This document shows positions 2,561 through 42,466 of a DNA stretch of 64,000 bases, piece by piece. Under the pieces are notes generated by a model, which was given only the letters and a program-made list of their open reading frames with translations, ran no database searches and was not told the DNA's origin. The stretch is taken from UHGV virus genome UHGV-0367612; one strand, given 5' to 3'. Source of the stretch: a virus. A program made the translations under genes and the position numbers. Position 1 is the stretch's first letter, and the number at the start of each line of letters is the position of its first letter.

Positions 2561-3461
2561 CTTCTATTGATTTTAATTTTCCTAAATTTAACCATGACAT
2601 CGATTTCGGTTTCTGAGCTTTTACATTATTCTTTTTCATATACCTGTATAACCTCTCCACTGCTTTATCTCCAACGAACTGAGAGGGATAAGGTATATTA
2701 CCTGTGAAAGATAATCCCTCAAACTGAGCCCTCATGTATACTTCTGGTTTTATCTTTGATTCTGCAATGTACTCAGCTGCCTTGACAAACCATATCTTAG
2801 ACTCAGGTTTCTTGGATATATCATCCACTATACCAGTCTCATCTAGTACGGCCTTGTTATATATTTTGCATAGGATATCAGTTATATCCTTATGCTTATC
2901 TTCTTTCTCAGCCTGTTTAGCTTCATACTCAGTACATATCCTAGTATGTAGTGGTAAGAATTTATTCAAACTATAAACCCTCATTAACTTTAATCCGATA
3001 GTACAATACTCTATGAACCCCTCTCTTATTGGTATGTCAAAGTCTTCCACGAAATCCTCTGCATTAGAGGCTACCTGTTTTAGAGTTGCCCATTCCTTAC
3101 TGGTTGATGTGATAAGGTTTATTCCCCTATGTTTAAACTGTCTTCTGACCTTGAATAACATAGATGAGAATAATACTGCAGTATCCTTAGTTGTCACTGT
3201 TATCTTCTCAACCTTTTCCTCTATCTTTTTATTGCTTGCAACTACTGCTCTATTTGATAGAGAGTATGGGCTGGCATACTTTAATATTTGGCCCACTAAG
3301 TTTTCTTTACTAACATGAATAGTAATTACTCCTTGTTTAATTAACTTTTCTACTAGAATTGTCAAATTTGACCTTCCTATATGTATGCTTGGTTCATTTT
3401 TTGAGTATACTGTATTTTCTGCCATGATTAACATCCATTTTATAATTAATAAGTTCTCCAT
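2544..3461 (-). CDS. hypothetical protein (replication-module associated)
   Basis: 305-aa ORF. Start may be the internal Met (MAENTVYS...). No recognisable motifs. Confidence 0.4.
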   Translation of the reverse strand: MENLLIIKWMLIMAENTVYSKNEPSIHIGRSNLTILVEKLIKQGVITIHVSKENLVGQILKYASPYSLSNRAVVASNKKIEEKVEKITVTTKDTAVLFSSMLFKVRRQFKHRGINLITSTSKEWATLKQVASNAEDFVEDFDIPIREGFIEYCTIGLKLMRVYSLNKFLPLHTRICTEYEAKQAEKEDKHKDITDILCKIYNKAVLDETGIVDDISKKPESKIWFVKAAEYIAESKIKPEVYMRAQFEGLSFTGNIPYPSQFVGDKAVERLYRYMKKNNVKAQKPKSMSWLNLGKLKSIEDGTEE

Positions 3462-4407
3462 AAGTCAAGAACTTATGCTTCCTAATCCTCCTTATGGTTT
3501 CTTTTTTACCAAGGTCATTAACATCTAAGTAACTACCATCCTTCTTTTTATCTTCCCAGTATACCACTCTCACCTTCTTAAAGTTCACTAACTTTAATGC
3601 GAGGTTTATGCTTTCTATTAAAGCATCTGGGTCTAATAGTAAATCTATAGCCTCTACTGGAGAAGATAGTATAGTATTGATCTGCCACTCAGTTAACAAT
3701 TTCCCAGCTGTTGCTATGGCTGTATCCCCAATTGTCTCAGCGTTAAATGCTCCCTCACATATTTGGATTCTCTTGTAAATATATAAAGCCTCTATATTAT
3801 ATATCACGTAAGCTTTACCTAATCCCACATCATTAGCAATGGGGTTCTTATATTTTGTCAATCCCCCAAGTAACACTTTCCTGGCATTAAAGTATACCAA
3901 CTGATCGTGCATAATGTAAGGGATGATGACATAACCCTTATAAGGACCTGAATCACAATAACCAAATCCTTTCTGTGATAACTTAGCTACTGAGAATCCC
4001 CTTCTCTTTAGATACTCCCTACATTTCCTTGCTACCAAGTTTGTACCGAATATGATGTTGTGGAACCCTTCTGGGAGTTCTAAGCCTTTGACTTTGTTAT
4101 TTATGGTTAGCTCTGACTCTGGTAACTTTATGTGTAACATATCCCAGTCCTTTGAGAAAATTACTTCCCAAGCTTCTTTCTCTGTGTCTGAGTTAGTTAT
4201 TTCTTGTACAGCTTCAATTATAGGTTTATTATACCCACATCTAAAACAATGGGTATCACCAGTTATGGGTTTTACTCCAAATTTATCTTTGGCTCCACAA
4301 AAGGGGCAAGGCATATTAACCCAACCCCTTGCTTTAGGTTTACCTCCCAATGTATGAATAAACCAACCATATAAATGTTTGATTGTTTTCTTACTGTACC
4401 TCGACAT
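3394..4407 (-). CDS. DNA primase (DnaG-like: zinc ribbon + TOPRIM)
   Basis: CPFCGAKDKFGV...HCFRCG zinc ribbon at the N-terminus. TOPRIM-like ICEGAFNAETIGD and DLLLDPDA acidic motifs. Confidence 0.6.
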   Translation of the reverse strand: MSRYSKKTIKHLYGWFIHTLGGKPKARGWVNMPCPFCGAKDKFGVKPITGDTHCFRCGYNKPIIEAVQEITNSDTEKEAWEVIFSKDWDMLHIKLPESELTINNKVKGLELPEGFHNIIFGTNLVARKCREYLKRRGFSVAKLSQKGFGYCDSGPYKGYVIIPYIMHDQLVYFNARKVLLGGLTKYKNPIANDVGLGKAYVIYNIEALYIYKRIQICEGAFNAETIGDTAIATAGKLLTEWQINTILSSPVEAIDLLLDPDALIESINLALKLVNFKKVRVVYWEDKKKDGSYLDVNDLGKKETIRRIRKHKFLTYGELINYKMDVNHGRKYSILKK

Positions 4408-4921
4408 AGATTTCCCTCCTAATTATCCTGTCTATTGTCCTTCTGGATACTCCATATTTCTTTGCCAGCTCTGTATGTGTTGACTCACTTTCCCTTATCT
4501 TTATAACCTGTTTTTTGGTTAATTTAGATTGTGGGTGCTTACTACTACTCAATAAATATTTATTTCTCCCATCCCTTTTACATTGCTTCATATTTTCTGA
4601 CTGAGTTCCCCAGTATAGATTGTCCAGGTTTGAGTTCATGGGATTATTGTCTTTGTGACAAACCATAGGTTTATTACTTGGGTTTGGTATATAGGTTATA
4701 GCTAACAACCTATATAATAATTTAGGTACACCATATAAGTTTACCTTGGGTCTATACTCTCCTCTCTTACTTCTATATTTATATACAGAAATTTCTACCC
4801 AACTACCAGTTACTTTAGAAAATACCCTGCCCTCTTTGATTATTCTATAATCTGGATACCCAGGTATCTCTTTGCTTTTATCAAAGATCTCCTTCAGTAT
4901 TTTGTCCTCTATCTGCTTCAT
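4391..4921 (-). CDS. HNH homing endonuclease (NUMOD4 + HNH_3 + C-terminal HTH)
   Basis: EIPGYPDYRIIKEGRVFSKVTGSWVEIS matches the NUMOD4 pattern I-P-G-[FY]-x-x-Y-x-[IV]-S-x-x-G-x-V. HNH core VCHKDNNPMNSNLDNLYWGTQSENMKQ. C-terminal HTH ELAKKYGVSRRTIDRI. It is a paralog of the endonuclease inside the terminase intein. Confidence 0.7.
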   Translation of the reverse strand: MKQIEDKILKEIFDKSKEIPGYPDYRIIKEGRVFSKVTGSWVEISVYKYRSKRGEYRPKVNLYGVPKLLYRLLAITYIPNPSNKPMVCHKDNNPMNSNLDNLYWGTQSENMKQCKRDGRNKYLLSSSKHPQSKLTKKQVIKIRESESTHTELAKKYGVSRRTIDRIIRREIYVEVQ

Positions 4922-6284
4922 TTGTCTCTTCTTCAGCTATAAAGTGATTAAACTGTTCATCAAATTCTTTTCTCTGTGCAACACTTAACTCTTTGAACCT
5001 TTGCCTATCCATATCTGTCATGAATACCGCTCTCCCTCGTGGAGTACCATCTCTCTGGTCTATGATCTCTAACCTCTGTACTCCTGCCATTTCTTCATCT
5101 TCTGTTCTATTCAAACCGAATGCGGCGTTGGCATGACGTATGATCTCTATTGCTCCAGCTATATCTTCCCCTTCATACCTTGTCTTCTCATGTTTAGCCC
5201 CTAACCTTGTTACATGGTTAGCAGTCCAATGTACATCTATGTTATGTTTCAACATCACATTAGACATATCAATGTAAGCTTCTGAAATACGTTCTGATAA
5301 AGCTTCTTTTCCAGTGTTAGAACCCATCTTACCCATATAGTCTGTTACCAACACATTCGGATAAAATCCAAAATTCTCTTCAAGGTCAGTGATTAACCTA
5401 TCTACTGTGTTACCAGTAGTTACCAGGGCAGGTAATCTCCTCACCACTACCTCTCCTCCTAACCTTTTATACTTTCTAAAGGTTTTCTTAACATCCTTAT
5501 CATATTCTCCAGAGAGTAATTCCATCTTTGTTTTATTACTCATACATTGTTCTAACCTGGCCATGTATTCTTCTTCTCCATTCTCAAGGTCTATCACCAA
5601 TACCTTCTTTCCCATTTTCAAATACCCCACTATAACATTAACCAAGAAGGCTGTTTTCTTTTTCTTGGGTTTATCCACTATAACTATAGTAGCTCCCTTT
5701 GGATAACCTCCCGCATTGGTTAATTTATTTATCTGCCTAAATGGAGTGGGGAATATAGTTTGTACGTCCCTTCTCATTAACTGTCTATCTGATAAACCTT
5801 CAATAAGAAAGGATCTTGATAGATCCTCTACTATTACCCTTGGTGATATTGCTTTACTTACTTTATCCGAGAATGTGTGATATCTCTCAAAGTCAAGGAT
5901 ATCCATGGTTTCAATGGTATCTTTTAAATCCAGGTATTGGGCAAACTTCTCTGTTTGTTTAACGATATACTCAGGATCTTTTACACTACCCTTGAATAAA
6001 TCTCTAGCTAATGATCTCACATTATCTAGCTCGGATTCCAACAAAGATGATGTCACAGATCTATCTGATAACAATTTCCTTAGTTCTTCCATGTAAACAG
6101 CTTTACTGGGAACTTTCTTGTAGTTTTTGTAGTAATCCTTAATTACTTTTGCCAGGATAGTATGCTCTATTAATGTGAAGTAATCTTCAGAATACAGATT
6201 AACCACCTTATAACCTTCAGGATGCTGCAACGTATAACGTAATATCTCAAATTGAAAGTCTGTATCAAATTCAAACTTAGCCAT
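4881..6284 (-). CDS. replicative DNA helicase, RecA-fold (DnaB / T7 gp4-like)
   Basis: 467 aa with a P-loop-like segment GATIVIVDKPKKKKTAFLVNVIVGYL and a Walker-B-like VLVTDYMGKM. Sits next to the primase. Confidence 0.5.
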   Translation of the reverse strand: MAKFEFDTDFQFEILRYTLQHPEGYKVVNLYSEDYFTLIEHTILAKVIKDYYKNYKKVPSKAVYMEELRKLLSDRSVTSSLLESELDNVRSLARDLFKGSVKDPEYIVKQTEKFAQYLDLKDTIETMDILDFERYHTFSDKVSKAISPRVIVEDLSRSFLIEGLSDRQLMRRDVQTIFPTPFRQINKLTNAGGYPKGATIVIVDKPKKKKTAFLVNVIVGYLKMGKKVLVIDLENGEEEYMARLEQCMSNKTKMELLSGEYDKDVKKTFRKYKRLGGEVVVRRLPALVTTGNTVDRLITDLEENFGFYPNVLVTDYMGKMGSNTGKEALSERISEAYIDMSNVMLKHNIDVHWTANHVTRLGAKHEKTRYEGEDIAGAIEIIRHANAAFGLNRTEDEEMAGVQRLEIIDQRDGTPRGRAVFMTDMDRQRFKELSVAQRKEFDEQFNHFIAEEETNEADRGQNTEGDL

Positions 6285-36617: not shown

Positions 36618-38054
36618 TTATTTCACTTTTGGTTGTGGTTTATTCTTTTCACGAGTTCTTTTATCTGACTCGTCTTTCTCTTTCTCTCTCGTTTGTTGAG
36701 CTCCATTCTCTTCAATAGGTGCTCTTGGTTCTTTCTCAGCTGGGGCATCGTATCCCAGCTCATCAGCAGCTTGCTCTTGAGAAATGATACCCATCATGTA
36801 CTTATTAGAGGTATTCCTGATCTTGTACTCGTTGGCTTGTTCTGTTTTCAAGATATCAGTGATTGTTGAAGGATTAAACTCTACCTTCAGAGTTTTAAAA
36901 TTAAACCCAGCTAACAATAATTCATACCTATACCCTATCTCAAGGTCTGCAGCCACTATACTTTGTACTGCTCTAAGTTGAGATAACATCTTGGTAAAGA
37001 TGATACTTAACCCAGTTTCAGTTCCCCCAGTAGTATTTAACCCCATGAATGTTCCAGGATATTTCAACGAGTTTGCCACTTTCCGTTGAGCTTCTGAGTA
37101 TAGTTCAGATACTCCATTCATATCCTTAGTAGCTGTATGGAAATTAAACTCATGATCATCCTGGAATCCGGTTACCACTCCATTAGATACCCCTTTCATA
37201 ATCTCCTTTTGAGTTTTCAGTAGGAAACTATCTAACTTGGATATGTAAGCGTTATCACTCTCACCATCTTCTTGTGTAGGTTTAGCAACCTTAACTTCAA
37301 GAAAACCTACCAACCCCATAAGAGTTAACAAGTTATCAACGTTCTGATCCATCCGGTATAACTTTGCTATGGTTCTCAAAGCCGGTAACCAAGGTGGAAT
37401 ACCATATGGAACTTCTGAGTAACCATTGATGGCAAAGTATTTGTAGGTCTTTGGGTTTAACTTCATGTAAAAATCCTTTACATTACTCCCAATAGGTGTA
37501 TCACCCTTTGTACCCACTATGTATTGATATGGGAAATACCTTTGTTTCCTTTTATCATACACCCAACGAATATTCTCAGGTTCAACCATGAAACAGGATT
37601 TAATTCCTTTCAAATCATTGTCTATCACCCATTCATTGGATATACAACCGGTAAGGTATGCTTGAGCTATAAGCTTACTGACAAAGTTATCAGTATTGGC
37701 TATACCATCAACCCATGTTTTACATTTCTCGTTTAGATGATCTCTCATCTTCTTTACCTGGTCAGCTGGAACCTGTGGGTCAAATTTTATCTTGTGCCCA
37801 GTATTGGTCAGTAAAACCAAATCGTTCAGGGCTAAAGATAAATTGTCATCAAGCATAGCTAACTTTCTGATCTGCGGAAGTACCTTCAAGATAAGTTCTG
37901 GTACAATGAGCTTCTTGTTTGGAGATAGCTCATTGACAACAAAATCCCCACCAATATCCAAATAACTATCCCTACCTGCTGATAAGGATTTTGGGTTGGT
38001 AGAGACATCCGTTACAGAACCTCCTGCAAGGGCTTTGTCTTTTAGCTTTACCAT
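36618..38054 (-). CDS. portal protein
   Basis: 478 aa directly downstream of the large terminase. Charged, disordered C-terminal tail. Size and position are typical. Confidence 0.6.
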   Translation of the reverse strand: MVKLKDKALAGGSVTDVSTNPKSLSAGRDSYLDIGGDFVVNELSPNKKLIVPELILKVLPQIRKLAMLDDNLSLALNDLVLLTNTGHKIKFDPQVPADQVKKMRDHLNEKCKTWVDGIANTDNFVSKLIAQAYLTGCISNEWVIDNDLKGIKSCFMVEPENIRWVYDKRKQRYFPYQYIVGTKGDTPIGSNVKDFYMKLNPKTYKYFAINGYSEVPYGIPPWLPALRTIAKLYRMDQNVDNLLTLMGLVGFLEVKVAKPTQEDGESDNAYISKLDSFLLKTQKEIMKGVSNGVVTGFQDDHEFNFHTATKDMNGVSELYSEAQRKVANSLKYPGTFMGLNTTGGTETGLSIIFTKMLSQLRAVQSIVAADLEIGYRYELLLAGFNFKTLKVEFNPSTITDILKTEQANEYKIRNTSNKYMMGIISQEQAADELGYDAPAEKEPRAPIEENGAQQTREKEKDESDKRTREKNKPQPKVK

Positions 38055-38055
38055 A

Positions 38056-40518
38056 TTAAATCGGATTTGTTACTAAGTTTTTCTTACCTTTTCTGATATA
38101 GTTAGTTATGGCTTCAGCCATTATGCAGTCATCTGTGTATACTGCATCATCATCGTAGATGTTATCATCGTTTGCCTTATCTTTACCCATTGCCACTGGC
38201 CTATTTCTGGAATCGAATATGAATGTATATGACTCATCCACAAAGAATTTGTTACATATATTCACTTGGTCAAAACGGATATCTTCTTCTAACTCATCTA
38301 TAATAATTGGTCTAGTGGATGTGGTTGTATACCAACCTGGGATATCTTCTACCTCAGGCTTACTTTTACCTTTCTTTTTCAAGAGTTTTTTGGCGTAATA
38401 CAAGTTAGGATAACCGTGATCCTGAATCTTAGAAGTTACTGCCAACCCAATATCATTTGATTCTGGTGCTATCAAAGCATTGTTGAAACGTTTACCGGTA
38501 TGCATGAGGAGGTTTGCATACTTAGAGGGATTTATCTTTCCCCTAAAATAAGCTAACTCCTCCCCATACCGGTTCATAACAGAAAATGCAGAATAGTCGT
38601 TTGCTCTACCAATAGCAACGTCTGCTCCGATAAAGCATCTCTCACCAGGTTTAGCGAAACGTCGTATGAAAAGTTTCCCATTCTGTTCAATGGAAATATA
38701 ATCATCTGGATAAGGTAAGCATTCCTCTATTGCTCTGATACAATTCAAATCGAATACCGTATTACCTGAAGAAAGGAAGTCACCATCAATCTCCTGTGCT
38801 GTTCTCCTTGGACCCAGTGACTTAGCCATCGAGTTATACCACTCCTCGTTTCTTTCAGGGTGCATTTGCCAATACAACCGAATAGGATTGAAATAACTAT
38901 CTCCATTTTTGGCATCAACCCATTGTTTGTGAAAGAAGTTCCCAATACCCATTGGCGTGTTATGGTTGATATACAGCGAGTTACATATATAAGATTGATC
39001 CTCTTCTACTGAAATATCATATATGTTCTCATAGGTGACGTTCACTAATTTTAACTTAGAAATATTCACCTTTGTAACCCTCTTGTTGTTTATAACTCTA
39101 CTGATATATGAAGCATTTACTCTTAACCCTAATTCATCTTCAATCTCTCTCATAATAATCTTAGATGAACCATAGGAGTTACCATACTTTTGATACTTCT
39201 CTTTTATCTTACCTATCAATAAGATATCTGGAAATTTATCACCCACACTTGGAGCAACTTTAAATGTGGGGGAAAGGTTTACTGCTCTCTTAGTATTTTC
39301 TGATTGAGATAGTATTTGTAAGTTTGTTACATAATTATGAGAATGGTCACAATCTATATGGTCTACTACATAACCTTCTGGAATATCACCTATAAATAAT
39401 TTAGCTACTAATCTTGATACTGAAAAGTTCTTACTCTCCCCATTTGCCCAAAGCTTAAACCTATAATACCCAGAATTACCTAGTATGGGTTCTTTCTCTA
39501 TCAGAGAATCACCATCCTTTATATATAACTTACCCCAGTTAGATAACATATATTTTGGATAACCAGGTATATTCTTGAATATCTCAATACTTGGTTTCTC
39601 GGTTTTTTTTGTTTCTAACTTCTTAAACCCTGTATCAAAGGTTATTATATTTAAACCTTCTCTAACAATTCTACCTACTGACCTCCAACCCTCTGTAGTA
39701 TATAATTTATGAGCTGGAGTACATCTCAAAGTATTTCCTTGTTCATCTTCTACTTCCCAGGTTTTCAATATACCTTTGTTCACAGAGTGTGTTACTTTTC
39801 TCCACTTACCAGTATGTGATAATACTTCTATCCCTAAATGAGATATATCTTTTATCCCCATTTCTTTTGGGCATACAGTATCAATTCTCAATGGTCCTTC
39901 TTTTGTAACTATTTCAGTATCACCTGTAACGCAAGAGTTTAGGATAGCACTACCTCCAGTTGATAGAGTGGGGAATGCTGCTGCCCAGATCCTATCAGCC
40001 CATCTTACAATTGCCGCCTCGTCTATCACAAGAAGAGAAACTGCCTCTGAACGACCGGCTTCTTCTGTTGTGGGGACTGATGTTATTGATGACCCATTCA
40101 CAAACTCAAGTACTGTGGCAGTACCAAATGAGTCTCCACGTATTTGAGTTACAGGAGTTTGTAACCATTCTGGCAGGTTTTTGTACATGTACTTAATCCT
40201 TTTCAAAACTCTCTTTGCAACCATATCCTTGATCGAGATAATCTGGATATTCTTGTTGTCATTAAACATGGCTAACCATAAGCAAAAGAAAGCGATAAGC
40301 TCTGTTAAACCTGCCTGACGAAACTTAAGTATGATGTTGAAACGGTTGTTCAGAAAATTCCAGAGAACTGCTCTCTGGTATTCGTAGAGTTTGAATTGTA
40401 CTTTACCCTTAACAGGATGAATGATATACACAAAGTTTGCAAGGTAGAATGGATTTACCTTGCATGTCCTGTATATTTCAAATTGTTCCTTCGTAAGAGT
40501 TACTATCTTTTTCTCCAT
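38056..40518 (-). CDS. terL: terminase large subunit, interrupted by an intein
   Basis: Exteins carry Walker B LLVIDEAA and the terminase motif STGGSAILNS|...|TPMGIGNFFH. The inserted segment between Ser195 and Thr521 has intein hallmarks. Confidence 0.85.
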   Translation of the reverse strand: MEKKIVTLTKEQFEIYRTCKVNPFYLANFVYIIHPVKGKVQFKLYEYQRAVLWNFLNNRFNIILKFRQAGLTELIAFFCLWLAMFNDNKNIQIISIKDMVAKRVLKRIKYMYKNLPEWLQTPVTQIRGDSFGTATVLEFVNGSSITSVPTTEEAGRSEAVSLLVIDEAAIVRWADRIWAAAFPTLSTGGSAILNSCVTGDTEIVTKEGPLRIDTVCPKEMGIKDISHLGIEVLSHTGKWRKVTHSVNKGILKTWEVEDEQGNTLRCTPAHKLYTTEGWRSVGRIVREGLNIITFDTGFKKLETKKTEKPSIEIFKNIPGYPKYMLSNWGKLYIKDGDSLIEKEPILGNSGYYRFKLWANGESKNFSVSRLVAKLFIGDIPEGYVVDHIDCDHSHNYVTNLQILSQSENTKRAVNLSPTFKVAPSVGDKFPDILLIGKIKEKYQKYGNSYGSSKIIMREIEDELGLRVNASYISRVINNKRVTKVNISKLKLVNVTYENIYDISVEEDQSYICNSLYINHNTPMGIGNFFHKQWVDAKNGDSYFNPIRLYWQMHPERNEEWYNSMAKSLGPRRTAQEIDGDFLSSGNTVFDLNCIRAIEECLPYPDDYISIEQNGKLFIRRFAKPGERCFIGADVAIGRANDYSAFSVMNRYGEELAYFRGKINPSKYANLLMHTGKRFNNALIAPESNDIGLAVTSKIQDHGYPNLYYAKKLLKKKGKSKPEVEDIPGWYTTTSTRPIIIDELEEDIRFDQVNICNKFFVDESYTFIFDSRNRPVAMGKDKANDDNIYDDDAVYTDDCIMAEAITNYIRKGKKNLVTNPI
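38959..39933 (-). mobile_element. intein (325 aa) with NUMOD4/HNH homing endonuclease, inserted in terL
   Basis: Begins CVTGDTEI (the block-A Cys is the first residue after ...ILNS). Ends ...SLYINHN followed by the extein Thr (His-Asn + Thr/Ser/Cys). Internal NIPGYPKYMLSNWGKLYIKDG is NUMOD4-like. VVDHIDCDHSHNYVTNLQILSQSENTKRA is an HNH core. Boundaries were checked at nucleotide level: gca 39931-39933 encodes the Cys, gtt 38959-38961 encodes the terminal Asn. Confidence 0.7.
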
Positions 40519-41189
40519 ATCCTAAACTTTAATCCAACCTCTAATCTTGGTTTTTCGTTAAACAATAGAACCTCAGAAGCCCGGAGAAACATGAATGAAT
40601 TGTTATTAAACCGATAATCTAACTGAAACTCTCCGAATGGCTTTTCCCGTAAAAAATCCAAACCGAAAACAAGAAAATAGGAAAGCCTTGGCTCCTGAGG
40701 TCTGTATTTTGTTTTCGAATACCCCATAACTCCTGATGCCCAATGATAGTTGTAATCCTGGTAAAACAGGTTATAGTGTTCCGAATAAACTTGTCCGTTA
40801 ATTCCAAGAAGAGAAATGTTAAGTGAATCTCTGAATAAACTCATTTCCACTAACTTTGGGTTTTGGGGATAAAGCTTTAGGAAATTCTCAGAAATCTCTA
40901 TCTCTTCCTGTAATCCTTGGATGATGAAACTGTAATGAAGGCTGTCCTTCAAAATCCTTAATTCCAATTCCTTTATTCTGGATGAATCTTCCCGGTAAAT
41001 CGTTACTCTATCAGGTTTCAGTGTATCTCTGATGATTTTGATTTCAGGATAAGGTTTTGAAATGAAGATTGTATCTGTAACCACCTTTACATGGGGATTT
41101 GGTGATTCAGATTTGTTGGTTCTGAATCCGAGATAAAAGGTTAAAGCCAGTATCCCAATGATGGTTATGATTTTGATTGTTGTCTTCAT
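40503..41189 (-). CDS. secreted / membrane-anchored beta-rich protein (signal-peptide-like N-terminus) overlapping terL start
   Basis: 228 aa. The N-terminus MKTTIKIITIIGILALTFYLGF is hydrophobic. It occupies the slot where a small terminase is usually found, but has no TerS-like features. Confidence 0.4.
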   Translation of the reverse strand: MKTTIKIITIIGILALTFYLGFRTNKSESPNPHVKVVTDTIFISKPYPEIKIIRDTLKPDRVTIYREDSSRIKELELRILKDSLHYSFIIQGLQEEIEISENFLKLYPQNPKLVEMSLFRDSLNISLLGINGQVYSEHYNLFYQDYNYHWASGVMGYSKTKYRPQEPRLSYFLVFGLDFLREKPFGEFQLDYRFNNNSFMFLRASEVLLFNEKPRLEVGLKFRIWRKR

Positions 41190-41285
41190 CCATGTTTCCT
41201 GTTTGGTTTCAGTGTATTAGAACCTCGAAAGTAAAATTTTATCAGTTCTAGAAATCAGGGAAAGGATATCGCGTGTATGCGTATA

Positions 41286-41434
41286 GACTAGGCTTAGGAT
41301 TAAGCTTAAAGATAGAGTTAGAGAAAGAGTAAGGTAATAATTTTTAGGCTTTAGCCTAAAAATACTTAGGATACGTAGTATCCTAAGTTTATACTCTTTT
41401 CTCTTTCTAAAAAGGATATTACGTAGTAATATCC
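41286..41434. repeat. cluster of four or more perfect palindromes (candidate operator / pac / terminator region)
   Basis: ttaagcttaa at 41300-41309. tttttaggc-ttta-gcctaaaaa at 41341-41362. cttaggatac-gta-gtatcctaag at 41365-41387. ggatattac-gta-gtaatatcc at 41414-41434. The last two share the core GGATA..TACGTAGTA..TATCC. Confidence 0.6.
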
Positions 41435-41455
41435 CAAAAAGGTTTTCTCTTCTCT

Positions 41456-42466
41456 CTAAATAAACTTTTTGTGTCTGAAAATCCATTCCAATGATTGTTT
41501 TATCCATGTCCCTACTTCATAAGGGGGGCACTTAGCTACTGTAGTACGGCCTTTGTTTATCCAATAGTTGATGTTCTCCCTCTCTGCATGGATTATGAAT
41601 TCATCAGGTATTCCCTGTATCCTAGCTAATTCTCTAGGACTCATCTGATAACCATCGGGATTGAATTGTCTGTTTGATTTCCTAGCTACTTGAGGATATG
41701 AATGCTTCAGGTTTCTGTAAACACCCGGTGCAGAAGAGTATTTACGTTTACTAGCTATGAATCTCTTTTCATTCGGATGATCTATCCAATACCTTCTTAC
41801 TTCAGATAATGTCATCTTAAATCCGGCATACATAGTTACTTCAGAATTTATCAACTCAGTGATATGTCCCCAAGGTATAGAATGGTTGTTGGATTTTAAT
41901 CCTTTTAACAAAATTCCAGTAGTTTTAGGCTTATGTTCTTTAAATTTCGTGATGTGTTTCCATATCAGTTTATGATTAACTGGGAAATCTTTCCTTATAC
42001 CCATCACTATAAGCCTTATTCTCCCAACTTGAGAATTCCCAAACTTTAACACTGAGCCAGTTAAGTAATGTAAGTGGTATTCTTCACTAAGCCATTTTAT
42101 CTCCTTAACAGAATATTTGGCTTTCGGTAAATTCTCCATGAAAAATATACTCGGTTTATAGGTTTTTATCTGGTCAAAGAACATGGCAAATGAATCATTA
42201 TCAAGAGGATTAGAGAATTCTTTTGCCCTTGTTAAAGCCATCATTGATGATGATCCACAATCTGGTGCTCCCACTATCACATCTGGGAAATCAAATACTT
42301 CTTCAGGTTTTTTGTAGAATGGTATACCTTCAAAATTCCTATTCCACTGGATATTGTTTTGAGTATGGAATAAACTCCTACTCTCAATATTTCCAGTAAG
42401 GTTGTCTTTCATTGGGTATAACCAAGAACCATTACCCCCACATACTGCTAAAATTTTGTGTTTCAT
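41456..42466 (-). CDS. C5-cytosine methyltransferase-fold protein with non-canonical motif IV (DCG instead of PCQ)
   Basis: Motif I-like ILAVCGGNGSW (FxGxGG). Motif IV-like VIVGAPDCGSSS (canonical GGPPCQxFS). Motif VI FFMENLP (ENV). Motif VIII-like GRIRLIVMGIRKD (QxRxR). Confidence 0.5.
   Translation of the reverse strand: MKHKILAVCGGNGSWLYPMKDNLTGNIESRSLFHTQNNIQWNRNFEGIPFYKKPEEVFDFPDVIVGAPDCGSSSMMALTRAKEFSNPLDNDSFAMFFDQIKTYKPSIFFMENLPKAKYSVKEIKWLSEEYHLHYLTGSVLKFGNSQVGRIRLIVMGIRKDFPVNHKLIWKHITKFKEHKPKTTGILLKGLKSNNHSIPWGHITELINSEVTMYAGFKMTLSEVRRYWIDHPNEKRFIASKRKYSSAPGVYRNLKHSYPQVARKSNRQFNPDGYQMSPRELARIQGIPDEFIIHAERENINYWINKGRTTVAKCPPYEVGTWIKQSLEWIFRHKKFI

Follow-up and report, generated by a model that had tools for sequence, protein, structure and literature searches.

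Evidence for an HNH-bearing intein in the large terminase of a human-gut phage

The window analyzed here, a 64,000-nucleotide stretch of virus genome UHGV-0367612, encodes a large terminase subunit (TerL) that is very probably interrupted by an intein carrying an HNH homing-endonuclease module. The TerL precursor is a single open reading frame (ORF) of 820 residues plus stop on the minus strand (38056..40518), continuous in frame, and the intein is a class 1 element of 325 residues (975 bp) that occupies TerL residues 196 to 520 (38959..39933, minus strand), running from Cys1 to His324-Asn325 and followed by Thr+1. The N-terminal extein (residues 1 to 195; 39934..40518, minus strand) comprises the N-terminal part of the ATPase, including the Walker B sequence LLVIDE and the first two residues of the C-motif, and ends in ...AILNS. 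The C-terminal extein (residues 521 to 820 plus stop; 38056..38958, minus strand) begins with Thr+1 (38956-38958), the third C-motif residue, and provides the remaining ATPase and the nuclease domain. A first-pass annotation of the window had already placed a 325-residue intein in the 820-residue protein at window positions 38959-39933, and a script run on the translation returned the same coordinates, with CVTGDTEI starting at residue 196 and the SLYINHN end at residue 520.

The interrupted gene is the only TerL gene that a phmmer search with the extein recovered from the six-frame translation of the window, and the spliced flanks match the terminase large subunit family phrog_2 of PHROGs (E 5e-42). 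The exact 820-residue precursor is found on at least five contigs, one of them an 84,879-bp scaffold, indicating that the window belongs to a gut phage that is recurrent and has a genome of about 85 kb. The host of this TerL is an uncultured human-gut tailed phage of roughly that size, and a megablast search of the terL gene against deposited phages gave zero matches.

Boundaries, splicing domain, and position of the intein

The predicted splice product has a natural counterpart. P0004, a 495-residue protein from a metagenome collection, is identical to it residue for residue over the full length and is encoded on at least four contigs (L004 to L007; the longest 84.8 kb), whose DNA is 96 to 97.5% identical to that of the window. 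The alignment of these contigs to the window breaks at positions 39935 and 38958, and what they lack is exactly the 975-bp segment 38959-39933. Among deposited phages, the TerLs of ON840059 and MT121964 (phage DP SC_6_H4_2017) are uninterrupted and run gap-free through Ser195↓Thr521 (the arrow marks the point of insertion), and the relative MT835790 carries a homologous intein at the identical position; the uninterrupted homologues in which the gap closes at this junction are those of L001 and L003. Comparison with insertion-free relatives, which the first-pass annotation had named as a check, therefore closes the gap exactly at the predicted junction in both protein and DNA. The match of the two extein halves to a terminase profile, a second such check, improves in the same way: Pfam Terminase_6N scores 18.7 bits on the precursor and covers profile positions 2-125, under the cut-off of 22, whereas after in silico splicing of residues 1 to 195 to residues 521 to 820 it scores 31.1 bits and covers positions 2-210 of 215, over the cut-off.

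The extein residues at the two junctions are ...GGSAILNS↓ and ↓TPMGIGNFFH (...TLSTGGSAILNS before the intein and TPMGIGNFFHKQ... after it), and they were said to rebuild a conserved terminase S-T-P-x-G-x-N-F motif. The rejoined block N-S↓T-P-x-G-x-(G/N/S)-F is indeed conserved among TerL homologues and aligns to the T-T-T-P-N-G C-motif of T4 gp17. In phmmer searches the spliced TerL matches the gp17 structures 3ezk, 3cpe, and 2o0h with E about 1e-22 (2e-23 for 3ezk and 3cpe); LLVIDEAA aligns with gp17 MIYI(D/E)(E/D)C, the Walker B and catalytic-Glu segment, and AILNS↓TPMG aligns with IITT↓TPNG. We infer that the numbering of 3cpe_A is offset by 25 residues from that of gp17, taking its IYIED segment as that of the D255E/E256D mutant. 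Residues TTT 285-287 of gp17 are what we take to be the ATPase coupling C-motif, and by this alignment the intein site is between the second and third C-motif residues, N-S↓T-P-x-G, equivalent to gp17 T286↓T287. A position inside the C-motif implies that Thr+1 would be splice nucleophile and conserved ATPase residue at once. Inteins usually occupy active-site motifs.

The ends of the insertion form a split Hint domain, all of it on the minus strand. The N-terminal part (intein residues 1 to 105; 39619..39933) contains block A with Cys1 (39931-39933) and block B with T72-P-A-H75 (39709-39720), and the C-terminal part (residues 291 to 325; 38959..39063) contains block F (...IYD306ISVE...) and block G (...YINH324N325). 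All class 1 residues are present, namely Cys1, the TxxH of T72-P-A-H75, the block F D306, H324-N325, and Thr+1, and the splicing blocks are conserved over 15 members of the intein family. Profile searches of TerL residues 196 to 520, likewise foreseen by the first-pass annotation, returned the NCBIfam intein_Nterm model TIGR01445 (31.5 bits against a cut-off of 24.5, intein residues 1-79), the intein_Cterm model TIGR01443 (17.1 bits against 15.6, residues 304-325), and an HNH profile described below. A PDB sequence search found mini-inteins, among them that of Spl DnaX (7cfv), which matches both intein ends (E 9e-6) and aligns to residues 2-90. An AlphaFold2 model of the intein, built from the 15-sequence family alignment, has a mean pLDDT of 91.5 and shows a Hint fold split by an inserted domain. 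The top match of this model in a Foldseek search of the PDB was the homing endonuclease I-HmuI, and all others were inteins, including TliVMA, PI-PfuI, GyrA, DnaE, DnaB, and RecA (E 6e-8 to 1e-4). The insertion is also more AT-rich than its surroundings, with a GC content of 32.5% against 39-40% in the exteins and a GC content at third codon positions (GC3) of 25.8% against 37.9%.

These data bear directly on whether the insertion is an intein at all, rather than a normal TerL subdomain peculiar to this lineage, an in-frame intron, or another kind of insertion element with an HNH gene. Phage methylases have been described with in-frame HNH insertions that defy easy classification (PMC11855218). 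The Hint fold, the full set of class 1 blocks, and the passing scores of TIGR01445 and TIGR01443 are those of an intein, however, and the reading frame is continuous while relatives close precisely at the predicted splice junction. A search of the region 38000-40600 against Rfam with E up to 1 gave no intron match. We regard a non-intein origin of the segment as effectively refuted.

Splicing of the TerL intein is very likely; the indirect evidence for it is that the element interrupts the only TerL in the window, that the precursor allele recurs on at least five contigs, and that its Hint part is under strong purifying selection. By the standard class 1 chemistry, an N-S acyl shift at Cys1 would be followed by transesterification, in which the N-extein passes to the Thr+1 hydroxyl; Asn325 would then cyclize with the help of His324 to free the intein, and an O-N shift would produce the Ser195-Thr peptide bond. 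The expected products are a 495-residue active TerL of the P0004 type and a free 38-kDa intein.

The endonuclease module and the population of TerL inteins

The domain inserted into the Hint fold (intein residues 106 to 290; 39064..39618, minus strand) has the parts of a homing endonuclease. A NUMOD4-like beta region and HNH core (residues 115 to 220; 39274-39591) include D191-H192, N204, and N213, and they are followed by a helical, helix-turn-helix (HTH)-like DNA-binding tail (residues 221 to 290; 39064-39273). Pfam HNH_3 matches residues 172-214 with 40 bits against a cut-off of 24.8, the segment falls in HNH endonuclease families of PHROGs, and I-HmuI (PDB 1u3e) matches intein residues 119-219 in sequence (E 8.6e-12) and the intein model in fold (Foldseek E 2.6e-8 over 193 columns). 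The HNH core that had been read from the letters of the insertion is thereby confirmed; in the family alignment D191, H192, N204, and N213 never vary, and they align to the D-H...N...N of I-HmuI. The NUMOD4-like block, also part of the original description, aligns to I-HmuI residues 3-50, the N-terminal DNA-binding strands. The Pfam NUMOD4 cut-off is passed by the relatives P0138 and P0174, and precomputed NUMOD4 matches exist for 845-residue TerL alleles.

The TerL family to which the window belongs contains three intein sites: site a after about residue 132, site b after Ser186, and site c, that of the window, after Ser195. Site b, with the junction TLS↓C...HN↓TGGS, lies 27 nt (9 codons) upstream of site c. 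The +1 residue is Thr or Ser at all three sites, and the inteins found there belong to one family with 36-56% identity. Site-a alleles are P0107 and P0116, site-b alleles are P0005-P0031, P0023, and P0121, and inteins at one or the other of these sites occur at loci L008, L009, L012, and L013. The commonest alleles among close relatives are 845-residue site-b forms (the P0031 cluster has n=372 member sequences), and the empty, site-b-only, and site-c-only states are all seen in exteins at least 99% identical to that of the window. A word-indexed protein search with the intein alone gave three matches; an extein search and an exhaustive search of representatives were needed to reveal the family.

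Some TerLs, more diverged from that of the window, carry two inteins, and other alleles carry an intein reduced to its splicing domain. P0124 (1152 residues) has a site-b intein at residues 180-520 and a site-c intein at residues 530-855, separated by the nine-residue spacer TGGSAIVNS; P0002, a fragment, has site-b and site-c inteins together with the same spacer; and P0125 (1178 residues) has a site-a intein at residues 138-471 and a site-c intein at residues 533-875. Sites b and c, being 27 nt apart and without a double allele in a first survey, had been suspected of mutual exclusion, which P0124 and P0002 rule out. In P0019 (760 residues) and P0030 (725 residues), site-b mini-inteins of 265 and 230 residues, respectively, have the HNH module cleanly deleted, as is expected late in a homing cycle.

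Comparison of intein and extein divergence points to movement between alleles, as does the lower GC content of the intein relative to its host gene. The P0036 extein is 77% identical to that of the window and its intein 38%, and the corresponding values for P0113 are 64% and 56%. The site-b inteins of P0005 and P0023 are 38% identical to each other, although each of the two exteins is more than 99% identical to that of the window. The presence of 38%-identical inteins at one site, together with TerLs that hold two inteins, suggests repeated invasions, some of them probably recent. The extein DNA also shows synonymous differences that are concentrated around the points of insertion. Between site-b alleles and the window, 17 of 80 nt near the sites are changed, against 62 of 1408 nt elsewhere (p = 3e-7); intein-free alleles differ at 4-5 of 40 nt near the site (p = 0.0008-0.04), and all four of them (L004 to L007) have in common four synonymous changes no more than 18 nt from the junction. 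The cluster spans nucleotides 540-620 of the spliced terL gene (window about 38924-38958 and 39934-39978), and across intein-free, site-b, and site-c alleles it includes the serine codon switches TCA to AGT, AGT to TCG, and TCT to AGC, each a two-step change. Co-conversion of flanking DNA and target-site immunity fit these footprints equally well. Homing would begin with co-infection by an intein-free relative, in which the HNH nuclease of the freed intein would nick or cut the empty terL site; recombinational repair would then copy the intein and short stretches of flanking extein DNA into the empty allele.

Both the Hint and the endonuclease modules are under purifying selection. Comparison of the window with the L010 allele (P0032, with an 86% identical intein) by the Nei-Gojobori method gave ratios of nonsynonymous to synonymous divergence (dN/dS) of 0.06 for the Hint N-terminal part, 0.108 for the endonuclease, and 0.05 for the C-extein, values that are approximate because dS is near saturation at about 1-1.3. 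The endonuclease ratio of about 0.11 and the invariance of the HNH residues in the family alignment are difficult to reconcile with an intein that still splices but whose HNH domain no longer drives homing, persisting by vertical descent since an imprecise deletion in the essential C-motif would be fatal. Such an intein would also not readily account for 38%-identical elements sharing one site in exteins each more than 99% identical to that of the window, or for the double-intein TerLs. Loss of homing nonetheless has observations in its favor: synonymous divergence between the window and L010 is similar for intein and extein, consistent with the two having long descended together in that lineage; near-identical genomes hold intein-free alleles that differ at the four synonymous positions beside the site; and the endonuclease-deleted minis P0019 and P0030 demonstrate that this intein family does decay. 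We consider it unlikely that the window intein has ceased to home, while giving that explanation real weight, and current homing activity appears plausible.

Purifying selection on the endonuclease, along with its physical location within TerL, would also be expected if the HNH domain had been recruited for packaging and were a functional TerL accessory rather than a selfish element. HNH proteins assist terminase in HK97-like cos phages. Three findings make such recruitment highly improbable here: genomes 96-97.5% identical to the window encode the identical extein without the insertion, so that the HNH domain is dispensable; the intein family is also present in family-A DNA polymerases, which are unrelated to packaging; and the module folds like I-HmuI, a homing nuclease with a long tail for binding DNA.

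Several points weigh against the assignment of 38959-39933 as a TerL intein with a homing-endonuclease module, in addition to the near-saturated dS values. The Pfam Intein_splicing model scored 35.7 bits, 0.1 bit short of its cut-off of 35.8. Pfam NUMOD4 scored 17.2 bits on the intein, clearly under the cut-off of 23.4, and NUMOD4 is a plausible reading of the block. I-HmuI is a strand-specific nickase, and the module in the window may nick or cut its target. The four synonymous differences at the junction fit co-conversion, and they fit equally well with cleavage-resistant alleles or with an endonuclease that no longer invades. Finally, both splicing and DNA cleavage by the TerL intein are inferred.

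An extended version of the homing scenario can be offered tentatively, and taken as a whole we think it rather doubtful. In natural gut-phage populations, several diverged HNH inteins may be actively contending for this terL segment. The dense synonymous recoding between and around the sites would then be a footprint of co-conversion, immunity, or both, and the inteins would act as marker-exclusion weapons between co-infecting phages and not as passive parasites alone. Marker exclusion has been demonstrated for the I-HmuI and I-HmuII introns of SPO1 and SP82.

Other features of the window

The window contains a second gene of the same endonuclease type, outside the intein. It encodes a free-standing NUMOD4/HNH/HTH endonuclease of 176 residues (4391..4921, minus strand), which the first-pass annotation regarded as paralogous to the intein endonuclease. 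The two are homologous and share the NUMOD4-HNH-HTH layout: BLASTP aligns them with 32% identity over 106 residues (E 5e-7), and the free-standing protein matches positions 112-283 of an intein-family hidden Markov model (E 1e-12). They are distant relatives, however. The best match of the free-standing protein among deposited phages is the HNH protein (ORF069) of Staphylococcus phage Twort, with 38% identity over the full length, and its Pfam scores fall under the cut-offs both for HNH_3 (22 bits against 24.8) and for helix-turn-helix models (the best, HTH_29, 22.8 bits against 28.1). From these alignments, the free-standing gene and the intein module look like separate acquisitions from a large pool of I-HmuI-like enzymes and not like a recent duplication.

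The free-standing gene fits tightly between a 337-residue ORF (3394-4407) and a DnaB-like helicase gene (4881-6284), overlapping its neighbors by 17 and 41 nt. The 337-residue ORF is a candidate primase on the basis of a zinc-finger-like motif. Look-ups with the free-standing protein and the neighboring helicase returned only genomes of identical arrangement.

Near terL, two similar palindromes, GGATATTACTACGTAATATCC and AGGATACTACGTATCCT, lie at about 41330-41440 of the window (minus strand) and have the core ACTACGTA in common. They are in the intergenic region that extends from a cytosine methylase gene to the ORF at 40503-41189, upstream of terL, and may serve as operators or terminators where the packaging and structural module begins. 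A low-complexity ORF called mechanically at 41217-41507 is probably not a gene; tandem repeats sought within it were not found.

Comparison with known inteins

The window intein belongs to a clade from TerL and family-A DNA polymerase (PolA) genes of gut phages, with only 18 representatives at E ≤1e-30 among 1.8 billion cluster representatives, and a literature search found no paper describing this clade. Outside TerL, the full-length relatives seen among the library representatives that were inspected or scanned are in family-A DNA polymerases, and deposited phages gave two full-length matches outside TerL, both in a DNA polymerase gene. These PolA sister inteins (L018 1268-4546 in MT121964.1; L019 in MT121960.1, annotated DNA polymerase 1; and P0129-P0139, P0160, and P0174) are full-length homologues with 27-40% identity (31-40% for sister inteins such as those of MT121964.1 and MT121960.1). 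They have the Hint-NUMOD4-HNH-HTH layout and end in a C...(H/S)N↓T junction, and they differ from the TerL inteins in their host gene and in the motif at which they reside (...IHG↓C...NSN↓T-x-SGRLSS). MT121964 has an intein in its polymerase and none in its own TerL. A second Hint element is apparently present in some of these gut-phage polymerases. As a separate observation, Desulfovibrio phage 7757 (OR395405.1, L020 139-2214) encodes a distant TerL homologue with a mini-intein of ~150 residues in Walker B, at the junctions SLCFIDE↓CVTGDTMV...GVTSHN↓CAFIP; that record is unannotated.

Public records of intein-bearing TerLs name a plain terminase or a hypothetical protein and leave the intein unmentioned, as in P0008 ("Large terminase protein, Ackermannviridae sp. 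ctClB2", UniRef/nr). Since the precursor reaches the Pfam terminase cut-off only once the intein has been taken out, recognition of the intein improves gene calls and terminase phylogenies of gut phages. What most deserves further work is the polymorphic three-site system with its tandem inteins. This natural series of empty sites, three occupied sites, doubles spaced by nine residues, and minis could be used to study how inteins home, co-convert their flanks, and decay in uncultured gut phages, and its compact HNH inteins, with Thr at the +1 position, are also available for protein engineering.

TerL is the commonest intein host in actinophages, where seven sites are known, all in the ATPase domain (PMC5050341), so that several insertion sites per family are common to those phages and to ours. 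The closest known case is TerL6-f of mycobacteriophage Chandler gp6, whose published description puts it at the ATPase coupling C-motif and which undergoes splicing in a reporter (Kelley et al. 2016, PMC5050341). Like the window intein, it resides in the ATPase domain of a Terminase_6-type TerL; its host is an actinophage, whereas that of the window intein is an uncultured gut phage. The endonucleases of actinophage inteins are also mostly of another kind, as 712 of 784 inteins in a recent survey were classed as LAGLIDADG-bearing (bioRxiv 10.1101/2025.01.02.630785), in contrast to the I-HmuI-like HNH module here. Inteins that combine a Hint domain with an in-frame HNH nuclease, as the window intein does, have been known since 1997 and are considered non-canonical and rare, with earlier reports in phages (Dalgaard et al. 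1997; bioRxiv 10.1101/2025.01.02.630785). Because TerL inteins, a C-motif TerL intein, and HNH inteins have all been published, the window intein combines known features in a new host lineage and leaves the current understanding of inteins unchanged.

For the endonuclease module, the best match in both sequence and fold is I-HmuI, the HNH enzyme of the DNA-polymerase group I intron of Bacillus phage SPO1. Phage homing nucleases of this type have an elongated form, consist of several modules, and make contact with up to about 30 bp (PMC3943268). The order of parts is identical in the two, from the N-terminal strands through the HNH core (D-H...N...N) to the helical, HTH-bearing tail. I-HmuI is a free-standing, intron-encoded protein, whereas the module in the window is fused within a Hint domain, from which it would be released by splicing. 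The two are about 24-30% identical.

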